Source: Candidatus Pacearchaeota archaeon
Lineage (GTDB): Archaea > Nanobdellota > Nanobdellia > Pacearchaeales > GW2011-AR1
Length of the DNA stretch: 64,000 bases
Reading direction: 5' to 3'
NCBI GenBank assembly: GCA_041649755.1
Contig: JBAZMK010000005.1
Location: forward strand, 8,597-72,596
Part shown: piece after piece, positions 7,801 through 21,816 of the stretch
Numbering within the stretch: position 1 is the first letter of the stretch
How the letters are laid out: each line of letters begins with the position of its first letter
The notes under the pieces: model-generated
Told to the model about the DNA's origin: nothing
The model's input: only the letters and a program-made list of their open reading frames with translations
Database searches by the model: none
Position numbers and translations under genes: made by a program

Positions 7801-8331
7801 TTATCTATTTATTTTCTTGTAAATAATATCCTTATAGTCTTTTCCTTTAGTGAGTGTCGAACCCTTTATTTCGCCCTCTTTTTCATAACTTGATTTTAAG
7901 AGTATTTTTTCAACAGATTTATTCAACTCATGAAAATATGCGTATACCTTAAGATACTTCAAATTATCAAATATGAATGAAGTCATCAATTTTACAGCCT
8001 CGCTCATGTAACCCTTATTCCAATAATCCTTTGCAGTCCAAAAACCAATTTCACCTTTTTTATTTTCTTCATCCAAATCAAAAAATCCAATGACTCCTAC
8101 AAAATCTTCGCTTGCTTTTTCATAAACTCCGAAATGATAAGACTTTTTTTCTTTCATCTTTTTATTGCAACTCCTAATATACATTTTAGCATCTTCTAAT
8201 GACTTTGAAGCCTTATAGGGTCCAGAATATTCGTTTAACTTGGGCTCCTTAGAAAATCTATGAAGTTTCTCAGCATCTTTGTCGCCCAAGGGTTTCAGGA
8301 TTATCTTTTCTCCAACAATTTTAGTTTCCAT
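7801..8331 (-). CDS. GNAT family N-acetyltransferase (RimJ/RimL-like)
   Basis: GNAT fold motifs: GVIGFFDLDEENKKGEIGFWTAKDYWNKGYMSEAVK. Last gene of the minus-strand operon that begins with the rSAM peptide locus. Confidence 0.7.
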   Translation of the reverse strand: METKIVGEKIILKPLGDKDAEKLHRFSKEPKLNEYSGPYKASKSLEDAKMYIRSCNKKMKEKKSYHFGVYEKASEDFVGVIGFFDLDEENKKGEIGFWTAKDYWNKGYMSEAVKLMTSFIFDNLKYLKVYAYFHELNKSVEKILLKSSYEKEGEIKGSTLTKGKDYKDIIYKKINR

Positions 8332-8373: not shown

Positions 8374-8820
8374 TTATATCGAATCGCTTTTATTTTTTAA
8401 ATAATCTTCAATCAACTTAACTTTTTCTTCTCGACCAATTGACTTATAAAATTCAAGAGCACATTCTAAGGGTAGAATTGGAACCTCTAATTCACCCCAG
8501 TTTATTATTCTTACCTCATCAAAATAATTTTTATCTCGATCTCCATAGCAATTAATTTCAACTTCAAAACCGTTTATATCGCAAATTAATGAAGGACCTT
8601 TTATCTTATCGCTGTAGAAATCTTTCGTAATTAAATCTTTTAATGCTTCTCTAAAAATCTCAATTCCTTCTTCATTGGTTGTTATATCTAGGTCTCTAAT
8701 TGAAACATCAAGACCCTGAATCATAAGATTGGCACTTCCTTCTAATTGCCAGACAGGTTTTTTATCCCTTAGCCTTTCTAGGGTAATTTTTAAAACCTCT
8801 CTAATGTCTTTTTCTTCCAT
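8374..8820 (-). CDS. Minimal nucleotidyltransferase (Pol-beta superfamily, ANT/LinB-like)
   Basis: hG[GS]x9-13DhD signature: EGSANLMIQGLDVSIRDLDI. Size ~150 aa, typical of MNT/aminoglycoside-lincosamide NTases. Confidence 0.55.
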   Translation of the reverse strand: MEEKDIREVLKITLERLRDKKPVWQLEGSANLMIQGLDVSIRDLDITTNEEGIEIFREALKDLITKDFYSDKIKGPSLICDINGFEVEINCYGDRDKNYFDEVRIINWGELEVPILPLECALEFYKSIGREEKVKLIEDYLKNKSDSI

Positions 8821-8844: not shown

Positions 8845-9579
8845 TTAATCTTCTCTAAGGATATCTGCTAATTTCTTCTTAATAGCTTTTTTTTGTTTAA
8901 ATGTTCCGTCTTCTCTTTTCTCAAAAAGAATATATAATTGGGATGCTCTTGCCATTAACCAACTATTTATGTCTTGAACTATTCCATCATAGCTAAATTT
9001 AATGCTTTCTTTATAGTTCGAAATAATTTCTTCTTTTTTCTCTGGACTTGAAATTATTATTGAGGCAACATCTCTTGCAGGATGCCCCAAACCTCCAAGT
9101 TCAAAATCAAAGTAATAATTCTGTCCTTTAAAAGTCACCATGTTTTTTTGTTGTAAATCTCCGTGAAGAAGAGTCTTTAGTTCACGATTGAGTCTAACCT
9201 CCGAAAGTTTTCTTTTAACAAGTGAGCTCAACCCATGAAATAAATTAAGATTTTCAAAAACATAAGAAGAGACTTCACGAATATCATGGTGAATAAAAAT
9301 TTTATTATCTAAAGGATTCTCAAGAAAATAAGAATGAACTTTTGCCCATTCTCTAACTGCAAGACCCACGTCTTTTTTTCCAGTTTCAATAAAAGATGTT
9401 TGGAGTTCTAATCCGTCAACACGATATATTTGTGGAGTTCTAACCAAAGGAATTCTCTGGAATAAATCATAAAAGAATTCCTCCCTCTTTAAGAAAATAG
9501 GCTTCTGATGTGTCTTTGAAACAACTTTACTTCCATCAACTTCATAAATTCTCGAGGTATTTCTATTTAATTCTTCCAT
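8845..9579 (-). CDS. Aminoglycoside-phosphotransferase-fold (APH/choline-kinase-like) kinase
   Basis: Catalytic loop HGDLQQKNM (HGDLxxxN) and DFE metal-binding motif (YYFDFELGGLGHPARDVA). Confidence 0.7.
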   Translation of the reverse strand: MEELNRNTSRIYEVDGSKVVSKTHQKPIFLKREEFFYDLFQRIPLVRTPQIYRVDGLELQTSFIETGKKDVGLAVREWAKVHSYFLENPLDNKIFIHHDIREVSSYVFENLNLFHGLSSLVKRKLSEVRLNRELKTLLHGDLQQKNMVTFKGQNYYFDFELGGLGHPARDVASIIISSPEKKEEIISNYKESIKFSYDGIVQDINSWLMARASQLYILFEKREDGTFKQKKAIKKKLADILRED

Positions 9580-10453
9580 TTTCTTCTGTTAATAAAATAA
9601 CTGAATCTTGTTTGTCTTCTTTTCCTGGAACAATTGATTTGAATCTTCTTTCCAGGTAGTTGAAACCAAATCTTCTAAAAGTTTCTTGTCTTAGTTCACT
9701 TCTATTAATCAACTTTCTATTTTCACTAAAACCTTCTCTTGTATCATAAACATATGCTGCACAAATAATTCCTCCAAGAGTTAAATGCTTTCTTAAAGGA
9801 ACGAGAATCTCCTCACAGAAAGAATCTAAATAATTAGTTTCTCCAGGAAATAGATCTTGAGAATAATCCGCCAAGTTAGAAAGAAGGATGACCTCAAAAT
9901 TATCTTCTAACTTAGAAGTCAGATCTCTAACATCTGAATTAATTAATTTAACTCTTCCATTTCTAATATTAATCCGGGTTCTAATATAATTAAAATCGGA
10001 ATGCAAATAAAGATTGCAAACAGTTCTTAATTCATTTATATCAAACCTCTTATTAAATAACTTAGATTGTCTTATTTGTCTACCATCTTTTTTATATTTC
10101 TTATAGAGACTATCAAAAAAACTTACGCACTCTTCAGACAAGTTTCTTTTTAAACCCTCATAAATTCTGTGGTCCATCGTTCTTTTGCTTCCTGTAAAAA
10201 AATAATCTTTAAAATCTCTTATATCTAAATGCTGTAAAGCTTTAATCTTTAATTCGGCGAATAATAAAGCAAGACGATTTATATCAAAACCAACAACACT
10301 TTTAGCTCCAAAAAAGAAAGGATTGATTACGTGGTCTCCAGAGCCAATAACAGTCAACACATTTTTCCCTTCAAAACCTAACTCTCCCATATATTCTGCG
10401 AGATTTTCTGTTGTAAAAGGGTATACTTTAGATCTTTCTCCAAATGAAGGCAT
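9563..10453 (-). CDS. SAM-binding Rossmann-fold protein (methyltransferase/aminocarboxypropyl-transferase-like, DUF3419-like)
   Basis: Motif I-like VLTVIGSGDHV and an acidic post-I strand (VVGFDIN). Overlaps its neighbours on both sides. Confidence 0.45.
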   Translation of the reverse strand: MPSFGERSKVYPFTTENLAEYMGELGFEGKNVLTVIGSGDHVINPFFFGAKSVVGFDINRLALLFAELKIKALQHLDIRDFKDYFFTGSKRTMDHRIYEGLKRNLSEECVSFFDSLYKKYKKDGRQIRQSKLFNKRFDINELRTVCNLYLHSDFNYIRTRINIRNGRVKLINSDVRDLTSKLEDNFEVILLSNLADYSQDLFPGETNYLDSFCEEILVPLRKHLTLGGIICAAYVYDTREGFSENRKLINRSELRQETFRRFGFNYLERRFKSIVPGKEDKQDSVILLTEENGRIK

Positions 10454-10454
10454 T

Positions 10455-10955
10455 TTAAATTTTTTTGGCTAGAAAAATAATTATCTTATGTTGGTGCATA
10501 TCTTCCCCATGTTTCTTAGATAAACAATCGTGATTATGGATTATTTCCCAGCCAAAGTACAATTTATTTAATTCCTCTTTGTTTGGATAAAAATGAATTT
10601 TGTCATTCGATTCTTCTTGTGACATACAAATTAAAAAGTGGAATCCTCCTAAAATAGTGTTTTCCTGCATTTTTCTAATTAGGTTAGAAGCTTCTTTAAT
10701 TTCAAAAAAATGCAAAATTCCAGATCCAATAATTAAATCATATTTAGTTTCAAACTTAAATTTAGAAAGGTCTTGTTGAATAAATTTAAAATTCTCGGGT
10801 TGCTCTGCTATCCTTTCTTTATCCACCCCTGTAACACTAATTCCTTTTTCAATAAATATTTTAGAAAACTTACAGTTACCACAGCCTAAATCTAGAACCT
10901 TTGAAGGATCTAGCTGTTTTATAATATCAACGATTATTGGTTTGGCTGGTTGCAT
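10455..10955 (-). CDS. Class I SAM-dependent methyltransferase
   Basis: Motif I VLDLGCGNCKF with an acidic motif II (VTGVDKE). 166 aa. Confidence 0.75.
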   Translation of the reverse strand: MQPAKPIIVDIIKQLDPSKVLDLGCGNCKFSKIFIEKGISVTGVDKERIAEQPENFKFIQQDLSKFKFETKYDLIIGSGILHFFEIKEASNLIRKMQENTILGGFHFLICMSQEESNDKIHFYPNKEELNKLYFGWEIIHNHDCLSKKHGEDMHQHKIIIFLAKKI

Positions 10956-12033
10956 TTTCTATATACCTATCCTTTAGATCAGAAGGTTTAACTAAGTTTC
11001 TAAAACACATAGGATCCTTTGCCATGTAATCTCCAGTTGTCGCATAAGCTATAGCTCTGCATCCCTTGCAATGAGAAACATATTCACATCCAGTATCTTT
11101 TTTTAATTTTTTTAAATCCCTTAAATTATGCATTACTTCCTTTTCAGTTATAAGGCTGACCAGCCCCTCACTAATGTGACCTATCTCAATGGGAAGTCTT
11201 CTACATGGATAAACTCTCCCATTAGACAGAACTGAAATTCCGGAATACCCTGCACCACATCCTCCTAAAAATTTTCCAGTATCCCTTGAAGTTCTTTTCA
11301 AAGGGTCATCACAATGCATTAAGTGCCATAATACTTCTGTTTCTAGCAATCTTATTTTCCCTTCGTATTTCTCTTCTAATTTTCTTTGATCACCATATAT
11401 TTGGTATAAACCTTCTGCATCAATAAACTCCGGATCTCTTAGCCCTAAATCTTTTCTTGGGACGTAAGACTGTATTCCAAAAACATCTGCTCCTGCATCG
11501 ATAGAATCTTTTATTGCCTGTTCAATGTGATTTTTATTTGATTGCATCGCAGTAAAAGAAATTGTTACTCCAATCCCCACATCTCTACAATTTGCTATGC
11601 CTTCCATAGCCTTATCAAAAGCATAGTGTCTTTGTCTAACTTGGTTATGTCTTTCCTTGTCTCCATCAATAGAGATTTGTACTCTTTTAATTCCTCTTTC
11701 TTTTAAGGCTCTAGCTTTATCAGGAGTTATGAGAGTTCCATTTGTCAAAAGTTTTGTTGGAACTTGGAATCTTTGGGTATATTCTAATATATCTAATAGA
11801 TCTTTTCTCAAAAGAGGTTCGCCTCCAGAAATATTAAATCTAGGAATCATTGACCACCTTTGTGTTGTTCTAACAAGATCGTCTATCATTCCAGTAACTT
11901 CGCTAAACCCCATTAAACAAGATTCTTCTTGCTTATGTTCTTCTTGCCCTTCTCTAGTATGATAACAATGCTTACACCTAAGATTGCAGTCATTCGTAGA
12001 GTCCCATTGAATGAATATTTGTTTTTTCGTCAT
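10927..12033 (-). CDS. Radical SAM enzyme with C-terminal SPASM domain (peptide-modifying maturase family)
   Basis: CNLRCKHCY is a CxxxCxxC rSAM cluster. C-terminal Cys arrays: CGAGYSGISVLSNGRVYPC, CEYVSHCKGC and a further Cys in MAKDPMCF. These are SPASM/twitch auxiliary-cluster ligands. Confidence 0.85.
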   Translation of the reverse strand: MTKKQIFIQWDSTNDCNLRCKHCYHTREGQEEHKQEESCLMGFSEVTGMIDDLVRTTQRWSMIPRFNISGGEPLLRKDLLDILEYTQRFQVPTKLLTNGTLITPDKARALKERGIKRVQISIDGDKERHNQVRQRHYAFDKAMEGIANCRDVGIGVTISFTAMQSNKNHIEQAIKDSIDAGADVFGIQSYVPRKDLGLRDPEFIDAEGLYQIYGDQRKLEEKYEGKIRLLETEVLWHLMHCDDPLKRTSRDTGKFLGGCGAGYSGISVLSNGRVYPCRRLPIEIGHISEGLVSLITEKEVMHNLRDLKKLKKDTGCEYVSHCKGCRAIAYATTGDYMAKDPMCFRNLVKPSDLKDRYIENATSQTNNR

Positions 12034-12081
12034 ATTAAATTTACCAATACATCACTCTCCTTGAAATATCAGTAAAGAAAA

Positions 12082-12243
12082 TTAATCCCTTGGAAGATAA
12101 TCATTCCCATCACAACTAACGCAGTCTTGGCATCCTGAAACACAAGTATACCCTTCTTGTCTAACTTCAGGCATCATGCTTTCAAGAAAGTCTATTTCTT
12201 CAGGTGTTTTCTCAACCACATCTTGTAAACATCCATTTACCAT
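12082..12243 (-). CDS. 53-aa Cys-rich candidate RiPP precursor peptide (MVNGCLQDVVEKTPEEIDFLESMMPEVRQEGYTCVSGCQDCVSCDGNDYLPRD); absent from the ORF track
   Basis: Hand-translated minus-strand ORF that ends 49 nt upstream of the rSAM/SPASM gene start. The C-terminal core has four Cys in CxxxCxxCxxC spacing, plus Asp/Thr/Ser. An archaeal TATA box lies about 23-30 nt upstream of the ATG. Confidence 0.45.
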   Translation of the reverse strand: MVNGCLQDVVEKTPEEIDFLESMMPEVRQEGYTCVSGCQDCVSCDGNDYLPRD

Positions 12244-12264: not shown

Positions 12265-12273
12265 TATATAAAG
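12265..12273 (-). promoter_or_regulatory. TATA-box-like element (TTTATATA) upstream of the precursor-peptide ORF; leaderless-type start
   Basis: Minus-strand reading gives ctTTATATAccttatttaactctataatttATG. The A/T box is about 23-30 nt before the ATG. Confidence 0.35.
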
Positions 12274-21656: not shown

Positions 21657-21816
21657 TGCTCCCACCGGGATTTGAACCCGGGTCTCCGCCGTTCTCCAAT
21701 GAATCTCAAAGAGATTATCGGTAGTGGTTCAAGCGAACCTGAAATTTATTGTCTCACCGACTAAAATTTCCCACCTCTTGAGAGGGCGGTATCCTTGGCC
21801 TCTAGACTATGAGAGC
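21657..21816 (-). tRNA. tRNA-Glu(CUC) candidate with ~87-nt intron at canonical 37/38 position; no encoded CCA
   Basis: Exon 1 (21816..21779) is GCTCTCATAGTCTAGAGGCCAAGGATACCGCCCTCTCA. Exon 2 (21691..21657) is CGGCGGAGACCCGGGTTCAAATCCCGGTGGGAGCA. The 7-bp acceptor pairs GCTCTCA/TGGGAGC, the T-arm is CCGGG-TTCAAAT-CCCGG, and the anticodon stem CCGCC/GGCGG forms only after the intron is removed. Loop is CUCUCAA. Isotype and intron boundaries need tRNAscan confirmation. Confidence 0.5.

Follow-up and report, generated by a model that had tools for sequence, protein, structure and literature searches.

A small cysteine-rich peptide gene beside a radical SAM/SPASM enzyme in DPANN archaea: a probable RiPP precursor and its gene cassette

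Several described systems for peptides made by the ribosome and modified after translation (RiPPs) rely on radical S-adenosylmethionine (rSAM) enzymes that carry a SPASM domain. In the SCIFF/ranthipeptide systems (TIGR03973; CteB/ScfB or PapB), a short precursor, composed of an N-terminal leader and a lineage-conserved Cys-rich C-terminal core, is encoded directly 5' of a single rSAM/SPASM enzyme, and this minimal unit has no protease or exporter. Sactipeptide maturases of the SkfB and AlbA type cross-link Cys sulfur in a leader-bearing peptide, and in the known structures of SkfB and CteB an N-terminal RiPP recognition element (RRE) precedes the rSAM region. The ACGX-repeat system (TIGR04340) is a bioinformatically defined, uncharacterized peptide system with small Cys-containing peptides, according to its NCBIfam description. 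In PqqA/PqqE and MftA/MftC a small precursor with a conserved core lies beside an rSAM/SPASM gene and is matured intracellularly; these systems need the RRE protein PqqD or MftB and target Glu/Tyr or a C-terminal Val-Tyr. The anaerobic sulfatase-maturating enzymes (anSME) act directly on peptide Cys or Ser in the sulfatase motif C/S-x-P/A-x-R and have no dedicated small precursor, methyltransferase or kinase gene. Here we analyze a 53-residue Cys-rich open reading frame (ORF) upstream of an rSAM/SPASM gene in a 64,000-nucleotide stretch of DNA (the window, taken at its full length) from a Candidatus Pacearchaeota archaeon (contig JBAZMK010000005.1, positions 8,597 to 72,596 of the forward strand). 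We propose, with a probability of about 0.78, that it encodes a RiPP precursor modified by the adjacent enzyme within a small cassette pathway. Among archaeal RiPPs, a 2025 survey found only the lanthipeptides of Haloarchaea to be characterized; it also counted archaeal rSAM-modified 'ranthipeptide/sactipeptide' clusters, DPANN included, none with a characterized product (PMC12144867). The evidence presented below comes entirely from in silico comparison, and every genome used is a metagenome-assembled genome (MAG).

The features on which the argument depends are the following.
12082..12243, minus strand: putative precursor peptide gene, 53 residues, MVNGCLQDVVEKTPEEIDFLESMMPEVRQEGYTCVSGCQDCVSCDGNDYLPRD (ORF list, sequence, NCBI identity, homologs, selection on codons)
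12172..12198, minus strand: candidate leader recognition motif EIDFLESMM, residues 16-24 (family motif; predicted helix)
12100..12150, minus strand: core YTCVSGCQDCVSCDGND, residues 32-48, CX3CX2CX2C, with candidate modification sites Thr33, Ser36, Ser43, Asp45 and Asp48
10927..12033, minus strand: rSAM/SPASM protein, 368 residues, presumed maturase (Pfam Radical_SAM, Fer4_12 and SPASM above cut-offs)

The locus shares with the SCIFF/ranthipeptide systems the type of precursor, the gene order and the minimal unit described above, and the PapB target motif C-X3-Asp is found as C44-GGN-D48. It differs in that the enzyme reaches 87.3 of the 340 bits required by the PapB model and 71.6 of the 855 required by the ScfB-related not_ScfB model, lacks the N-terminal RRE of CteB, and is accompanied by an obligate TehB-like methyltransferase and, in this clade, by genes for a kinase and a DUF3419 protein. 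Its genomes are archaeal (DPANN), not clostridial or otherwise bacterial. No NCBIfam model is reached at its cut-off. The best is that of the ACGX-system rSAM protein, of similar length, in which enzyme residues 8-346 align to model positions 5-340/341 with 180.4 of 400 bits (168-185 bits in other DPANN clades), followed by NirJ2 (177 of 500) and AhbD (171 of 500); the window peptide lacks ACGX repeats. Pfam and NCBIfam searches at E<=10 returned no meaningful family for the window peptide or for the peptides of any clade, the SCIFF and ACGX-repeat peptide models included. Unlike AhbD and NirJ, the enzyme has peptide, methyltransferase and kinase genes as neighbors and not ahb or nir genes.

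Among solved proteins, SkfB is the closest match by sequence (1.6e-12) and CteB the second, but identity to SkfB is only ~19%, the matched rSAM region begins at residue 12 here and at residues 104-115 in SkfB/CteB (near 115 in SkfB), and sactipeptide cores are less Cys-dense than those of the window family. The anSME resemble the enzyme in length (about 370 residues) and in an RRE-less architecture of barrel and SPASM domain, at an identity of 17-19%, and their substrate motif is absent here. PqqE appears among both the sequence and the structure matches, but no PqqD/MftB-like partner occurs (no cassette gene has a PqqD-like Pfam match) and the mycofactocin and PqqE models give 90 of 265 and 78 of 381 bits. 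For the class V lanthipeptides (LxmK/LxmX/LxmY), the LxmK model gives 16.6 of 315 bits and the cassette has no lyase or cyclase domain; for the triceptides (3-CyFE), the core offers one Y32-T33-C34 and the WgkB model only 101 of 650 bits. The locus falls outside the SCIFF/ranthipeptide, ACGX, AhbD/NirJ and class V lanthipeptide systems, and perhaps outside the triceptides as well; we class the cassette as a new family among the rSAM/SPASM RiPP systems, which it resembles in working. It stands out by an enzyme that lacks an RRE, a TehB-like methyltransferase that is obligate, and genes for a kinase and a DUF3419 protein that are specific to a clade. A literature search found nothing on this peptide family, on the ACGX system, or on a pairing of an rSAM/SPASM enzyme with a TehB-like methyltransferase.

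The peptide gene and its conservation

The ORF extends over 53 codons from an ATG start to a TAA stop, and both the ORF list and the sequence confirm the clean translation of a 53-residue Cys-rich peptide that the first-pass annotation of this DNA had quoted. The four core Cys residues counted there are C34, C38, C41 and C44; the full peptide has five, the additional Cys5 lying outside the core and not being kept among homologs in the alignment. The description of the ORF as unannotated is true of the ORF track used at that time but not of NCBI, where an identical protein is already listed as WC494_03215, described as hypothetical and derived from a Candidatus Pacearchaeota MAG, with its neighbor labeled 'radical SAM protein'. 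A search of 5.8 billion proteins recovered 10 homologs of 58-63 residues (E 1e-11 to 1e-15), in whose alignment the first ~20 N-terminal residues vary and the block SMMPEVRQEGYTCVSGCQDCVSCGGNDY, including the CX3CX2CX2C cysteines, is almost invariant. Across 12 loci the 25-codon core block has a proportion of synonymous changes (pS) of 0.69, which is saturated, and a proportion of nonsynonymous changes (pN) of 0.19 (pN/pS 0.27). Between the window and the related locus L001, 9.0 of 13.8 synonymous sites and 4.0 of 61.2 nonsynonymous sites are changed; 24 of the 25 core residues are identical at an rSAM identity of 79%, and the peptide core is better conserved than the adjacent enzyme.

The E-values of these 10 homologs, together with a pN/pS of 0.27 at saturated pS, place the ORF beyond chance, and on these comparisons it is a genuine, conserved gene under purifying selection. 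The opposing view, that it is a chance frame or dead remnant in AT-rich intergenic DNA with a random match to a TATA box, can appeal to the many small ORFs in the mechanical ORF list, to the interruption of some related loci, and to the frequency of the TATA octamer TTTATATA, which taken alone shows no enrichment in the window of ~31% GC (13 matches against 8.8 expected). This view is refuted, and its probability negligible, since dozens of independent assemblies retain the gene, synonymous changes are in strong excess, homolog E-values reach 1e-15 against 5.8 billion proteins, and the position of the TATA box is conserved.

The association of the peptide with the enzyme is nearly constant. 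Using the enzyme and not the peptide as the query, we collected loci in 185,579 species-representative genomes and in metagenomes of the Joint Genome Institute (JGI). Enzymes of 40-81% identity all derive from Woese-, Pace- or Nanoarchaeota MAGs, and the next-best, at ~35% identity, are bacterial (Nitrospirota, Desulfobacterota). A Cys-rich ORF ends at most 95 nucleotides upstream of the enzyme in 67 of 70 assessable DPANN-type loci, the exceptions being L033, L036 (with a partial enzyme) and L120. Every homolog on a readable contig sits directly upstream of an orthologous rSAM/SPASM gene, and in the 67 DPANN-type loci the two genes are adjacent and in the same orientation, with gaps of about -8 to 59 nucleotides. 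Absence of the peptide wherever the enzyme occurs, named by the first-pass annotation as an outcome that would count against a precursor, is therefore clearly contradicted at 67 of these 70 loci. The pairing with the rSAM gene that it proposed also stands; it missed the methyltransferase, kinase and DUF3419 partners.

Inspection of about 95 bacterial loci with the 35%-identical enzyme revealed no comparable peptide, and tblastn found no homologs of the methyltransferase, kinase or DUF3419 protein in them. Searches with the peptide itself gave a similarly narrow picture: a profile search returned only 53 clusters in 5.8 billion sequences, an exhaustive hidden Markov model search of 1.84 billion representatives returned 10 peptide matches, and all matches of both searches are unnamed or 'hypothetical' and without a Pfam domain. 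The cassette, which is undescribed, was found only in tiny DPANN archaea.

Within the peptide, the most widely shared element is not the Cys-rich core but a leader motif. All 48 distinct peptides have the nine-residue consensus E-x-x-[F/Y/L]-L-x-S-[M/F/Y]-x, a motif that was fitted post hoc and has a chance expectation of about 0.9% per random 60-mer, and the cross-clade alignment A3 shows no variation at E16. The AlphaFold2 model of the window peptide is disordered (predicted local distance difference test, pLDDT, 50) and, being of low confidence, is usable for the leader helix only; its sole helix covers residues 14-21, on the leader motif. A leader followed by a Cys-rich C-terminal core, here CX3CX2CX2C, is borne out, whereas the acidity of the leader that had been described along with it is a trait of the window copy and not of the family, whose leaders vary in net charge between -7 and +5; what they have in common is a short amphipathic helix motif.

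The core is nearly invariant within clade A, to which the window belongs, where it reads YTCVSGCQDCVSCGGND. The corresponding cores are C-x-x-C-x-x-C-NSCGSGDC-x-SCC in clade B, Y-x-CDPCDACGPDAC followed by a variable tail in clade C, and CNTCKQCPGCGCMCNND in clade D. The peptides contain 4-8 Cys with clade spacings of 3-2-2, 2-2-4-2-0, 2-2-4-2-2 and 2-2-2-1-1; C-x-x-C-x-x-C-G is universal across clades, and in nearly every clade the first core Cys is preceded, at a distance of one to four positions, by an aromatic residue. Core composition is 23% Cys, 14% Asp, 11% Ser and 11% Gly. The motif Tyr32-Thr33-Cys34 (Y-T-C) occurs once in the window peptide and is widely conserved. The usual hallmark of RiPP precursors is a conserved N-terminal motif joined to a core that differs from clade to clade, and the family therefore has the architecture expected of them. 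About half of the distinct peptides have a C-terminal Asp, and several clade-A peptides stop exactly at ...CGGND, where the window copy goes on with YLPRD; residues past Asp48 may be a dispensable follower, and the C-terminal Asp may be functionally relevant.

Two further elements flank the peptide gene.
12265..12272, minus strand: candidate TATA box TTTATATA, preceded by an A-rich tract (octamer at the same distance in 12 clade-A loci)
12034..12081, minus strand: 48-nucleotide spacer between peptide and rSAM genes, with a T-rich tract at 12072-12081 and a Shine-Dalgarno (SD)-like sequence AAGGAGAGTGAT at 12051-12062

A TATA box of its own about 23-30 nucleotides upstream of the ATG, consistent with a leaderless transcript, had been suggested from the window alone, and the position proves to be kept in all 12 close orthologs. 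In the window, TTTATATA lies at -29..-22 relative to the A of the peptide ATG, and a TATA-like octamer (TTTATATA, TTTAAATA, TTTATAAA, TTTAAAAA or similar) that follows an A-rich tract lies 22-23 nucleotides before the ATG in 12 of 12 clade-A loci, whose flanks have diverged and whose upstream genes differ. The element gains its significance from this conserved position in orthologous loci and not from enrichment of the octamer. Archaeal TATA boxes are centered about 26 nucleotides upstream of the transcription start; the distance therefore places the start at or beside the ATG, and the peptide mRNA would be leaderless.

The spacer to the enzyme measures 48 nucleotides, one fewer than first given, and ranges from 39 to 59 nucleotides in 12 loci, most with a T-rich run at its start. 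This run could act as a partial archaeal terminator that raises the ratio of peptide to enzyme transcript. Most of these spacers also have in common a aagagtagtgat-like element (AAGAGTAGTGAT in relatives), which is SD-like and may serve as a ribosome-binding site; in the window and in L001 and L014-L017 it stands 18-30 nucleotides before the rSAM ATG, too distant for typical Shine-Dalgarno spacing. An alternative rSAM start marked by this element was considered and rejected, as an in-frame TGA separates it from the ATG and the N-termini align family-wide.

The enzyme and its partner genes

The enzyme has the motif CNLRCKHC at residues 16-23 (C16, C20 and C23; CX3CX2C), the motif GGEPLL and six invariant C-terminal Cys, and its Pfam scores (87.5 bits for Radical_SAM, 27.4 bits for SPASM) both exceed the cut-offs. 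Its AlphaFold2 model (pLDDT 82, predicted template modeling score 0.85) consists of barrel and SPASM domain only. Foldseek neighbors of the model are SkfB (9e-16), BlsE, SuiB, PqqE, anSME and ChlB, with the highest TM scores for anSME (0.68-0.70) and a middle rank for ChlB, a cyclophane synthase with a leader-bound structure (PMC12912966). Together with CteB from the sequence search, the neighbors SkfB, SuiB, PqqE, anSME and ChlB make peptide-modifying SPASM enzymes the closest relatives of solved structure.

Downstream of the enzyme lie three genes that complete the cassette in the window.
10455..10955, minus strand: TehB-like SAM-dependent methyltransferase, 166 residues (Pfam TehB 5e-19), overlapping the rSAM gene by 29 nucleotides
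9563..10453, minus strand: DUF3419 (BtaA-like) SAM-binding protein, 296 residues, candidate accessory tailoring gene (Pfam DUF3419 4e-9)
8845..9579, minus strand: APH-like kinase, 244 residues, candidate clade-A tailoring gene (Pfam APH 5e-5, just over cut-off)

In the clade of the window the rSAM gene is followed by the TehB-like methyltransferase and the APH-like kinase in overlapping or abutting reading frames, and the genes around the cassette vary by locus while the cassette itself is constant. The methyltransferase, whose nearest solved structures are those of TehB (4dq0, 2xva; about 1e-14), adjoins the rSAM gene in almost every DPANN clade, even where rSAM identity falls to 40%. Judged by this gene content, the conserved unit is peptide, rSAM/SPASM enzyme and TehB-like methyltransferase. 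In the window the operon would read peptide, rSAM/SPASM, TehB-like methyltransferase, DUF3419 and APH-like kinase, with its own promoter before the peptide. In the divergent locus L172 (274-1169; peptide P0141), a longer TehB-like methyltransferase of 238 residues lies upstream and overlaps the peptide gene by 4 nucleotides, so that gene order in the cassette varies within the family; in L030 and L041 the methyltransferase is upstream on the opposite strand.

The two remaining partners vary together with single residues of the core. The DUF3419 gene occurs only in six distinct clade-A loci, which form two separate groups on the neighbor-joining tree of the enzyme and have two gene orders; all six have Asp45 (C-D-G-N-D), and all 11 clade-A loci without the gene have Gly45 (C-G-G-N). 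The kinase is found in clade-A loci only; read from the sequence, its motifs HGDLQQKN (catalytic loop) and FDFE are intact, and a sequence search of the PDB with it returned nothing significant. Ser43 is retained at every kinase-positive locus and missing in both kinase-less clade-A loci (Asn33 with Pro43 in L016; His43 in L174/L175). Such a pattern is expected if the peptide is the substrate of the tailoring enzymes.

These observations bear on a second alternative, that the product is an unmodified small protein, a Cys-rich metal or Fe-S partner that donates electrons, carries clusters or acts as a metallochaperone, for instance, to an rSAM/SPASM enzyme with a small-molecule substrate. We regard this as quite improbable. 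It would account for CxxCxxC as the sole universal feature of the core, for ferredoxin-like spacing in some clades (CX2CX2CX4C), for the equal similarity of the enzyme to small-molecule enzymes of the AhbD/NirJ type and for a cassette without protease or exporter, and two family members give weak matches to zf-CXXC (E 0.043) and FeS-domain (E 0.12) models, far under cut-off. A metal site should, however, keep its ligands, and here the number (4-8) and spacing of Cys shift by clade while a non-Cys N-terminal helix motif is most widely kept. Moreover, AlphaFold2 predicts no fold for the peptide, no tetrapyrrole or other pathway genes lie beside the cassette in DPANN loci, and the covariation of the non-Cys residues Asp45 and Ser43 with accessory genes would be hard to explain for a mere metal-binding accessory.

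Two ORFs downstream of the kinase on the same strand, nucleotidyltransferase-like (8374-8820, minus strand; weak match to aminoglycoside 2''-adenylyltransferase) and GNAT acetyltransferase (7801-8331, minus strand), were considered as cassette members and rejected, as tblastn found no homolog of either in any related locus; they are probably unrelated neighbors. Assignment of the ~35%-identical bacterial enzymes to AhbD/NirJ was also rejected, as they too fall below those cut-offs. These bacterial homologs (Nitrospirota, Desulfobacterota, Syntrophorhabdus) have a conserved leader sequence ~30-160 nucleotides before the rSAM start (L043-L091 and L124-L171, e.g. L054:5830-5995; alignment A4), composed of a GTTGCC...GGCAAC hairpin and then a second, terminator-like hairpin with a T-run. 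It has no Rfam family at the gathering threshold and may be an undescribed cis-regulatory RNA. Elsewhere in the window, positions 21657-21816 (minus strand) match the Rfam tRNA model over its full 71 positions across 160 nucleotides, with an implied intron of ~89 nucleotides, and were not reported by ARAGORN; an intron-containing tRNA is consistent with the archaeal origin of the window.

Proposed pathway and competing chemistries

In the pathway that we propose, the peptide would be translated from a leaderless mRNA with its own promoter as a 53-residue precursor, whose leader helix (residues 14-24, including EIDFLESMM) would dock directly on the RRE-less rSAM/SPASM enzyme. The 5'-deoxyadenosyl radical of the enzyme would then abstract hydrogen in the core YTCVSGCQDCVSCDGND and give rise to intramolecular cross-links, most likely thioethers like those of sacti- and ranthipeptides, with Cys sulfur bonded to a carbon of Asp, Thr, Ser or Asn. 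The TehB-like methyltransferase would subsequently methylate the product at a thiol or carboxylate, the clade-A kinase would phosphorylate Ser or Thr, with Ser43 as the best candidate, and the DUF3419 enzyme would act at or near Asp45. The chemical steps, their order, the removal of the leader and the biological role are inferred. Thioether cross-links of the sacti/ranthipeptide type are a tentative assignment with somewhat less than an even chance, and this estimate reflects the core composition, the SkfB and CteB matches and the presence of C44-X3-D48.

The peptide may also be an rSAM substrate that receives a different modification: a Tyr-X-Cys cyclophane or Tyr-Cys link as in triceptides (3-CyFE), an anSME-like oxidation of Cys C-beta, or conversion to a cofactor in the manner of PQQ or mycofactocin. 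The aromatic residue ahead of the first core Cys, present in almost every clade and in many as aromatic-X-Cys (YTC, YHC, YEC, FSC), points in this direction, although aromatic-X-Cys is absent from clade D and parts of clade B. Structural comparison likewise ranks anSME first by TM score (0.70, at equal length and RRE-less) and includes ChlB, whereas the best PDB sequence matches, SkfB and CteB, form thioethers. The WgkB model gives 101 bits, yet it, the mycofactocin and the PqqE models are all far under their cut-offs. Extreme conservation of the core within a clade and the lack of an exporter or protease resemble cofactor-type RiPPs; the Cys-rich, Asp/Ser/Gly-rich composition (23% Cys, 14% Asp) is closest to SCIFF/ranthipeptide cores. 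On balance, non-thioether chemistry of these kinds is possible but on the unlikely side.

Several observations weigh against the assignment of the ORF as a RiPP precursor of the adjacent enzyme. The first-pass annotation had suggested a search for an RRE-like domain in the N-terminus of the enzyme, and the outcome is negative: the rSAM motif begins at residue 16 and the AlphaFold2 model has no domain beyond barrel and SPASM, so that leader recognition would have to be direct or via another element. NCBIfam scores are nearly equal for tetrapyrrole enzymes (NirJ2 177, AhbD 171) and a peptide system (ACGX 180), all of them sub-cut-off. No protease or exporter conserved in the cassette was found at the loci read; the product may therefore act intracellularly, or unlinked genes may process it. 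The covariation of core residues with partner genes comprises few independent events on a neighbor-joining tree that is unbootstrapped. Finally, C-X3-[D/E] occurs in 18 of 24 cores, a nominal enrichment confounded by the three-residue periodicity of CxxC and by relatedness; since these explain the excess at n=3, C-Xn-[D/E] spacing was rejected as evidence for PapB-type chemistry.

A further difficulty is that in four related loci (L032, L029, L039 and L097) a stop or frameshift falls exactly between leader motif and core. In L032 (1276-1509) the frame is closed by a TAG, after which an ATG follows. L039 (5751-5960) and L029 (1784-2000) need a -1 shift, with indels around an A AAA AAG tract, and the zero frame of L039 (ATA AAA AAG GGA TAG) combines an A_AAA_AAG slippery heptamer with a stop. 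In L097 (3768-3950), from the clade of the window, a 2-nucleotide TA insertion after MMPEV leaves a 32-residue leader ORF (P0140). The interruptions may represent assembly error, decay to pseudogenes, recoding, or split leader and core, and some lineages could make leader and core from separate or recoded frames. Stops or frameshifts in orthologous loci had been named at the outset as an observation that would tell against a functional precursor, but they affect a small minority of loci and do not overturn the reading of the ORF as one.

A bolder proposal, which we consider unlikely, makes this cassette the first case of a RiPP class limited to DPANN archaea, with chemistry unlike that of sacti- or ranthipeptides. 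Direct recognition of a short helical leader by an RRE-less rSAM/SPASM enzyme, obligate TehB-type (chalcogen/thiol-type) methylation, phosphorylation specific to a clade and a SAM-dependent transfer of the BtaA kind would together produce a Cys-rich peptide that is densely modified and metal- or redox-active.

Implications for DPANN archaea

The family gives a defined pair of substrate and enzyme, with a leader motif, clade-specific cores and predictions at the level of single residues (Ser43 for the kinase, Asp45 for the DUF3419 protein). It could also become a case in which a leader is recognized without an RRE, and one in which a peptide is the substrate of a TehB-like methyltransferase. 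The genomes of DPANN archaea are very small, and the keeping of a peptide-modification cassette of 3-5 genes suggests a useful function. If the proposal of a separate, densely modified DPANN peptide class were true, genome-reduced episymbiotic archaea might use the modified peptide as a cofactor or for interaction with their hosts.

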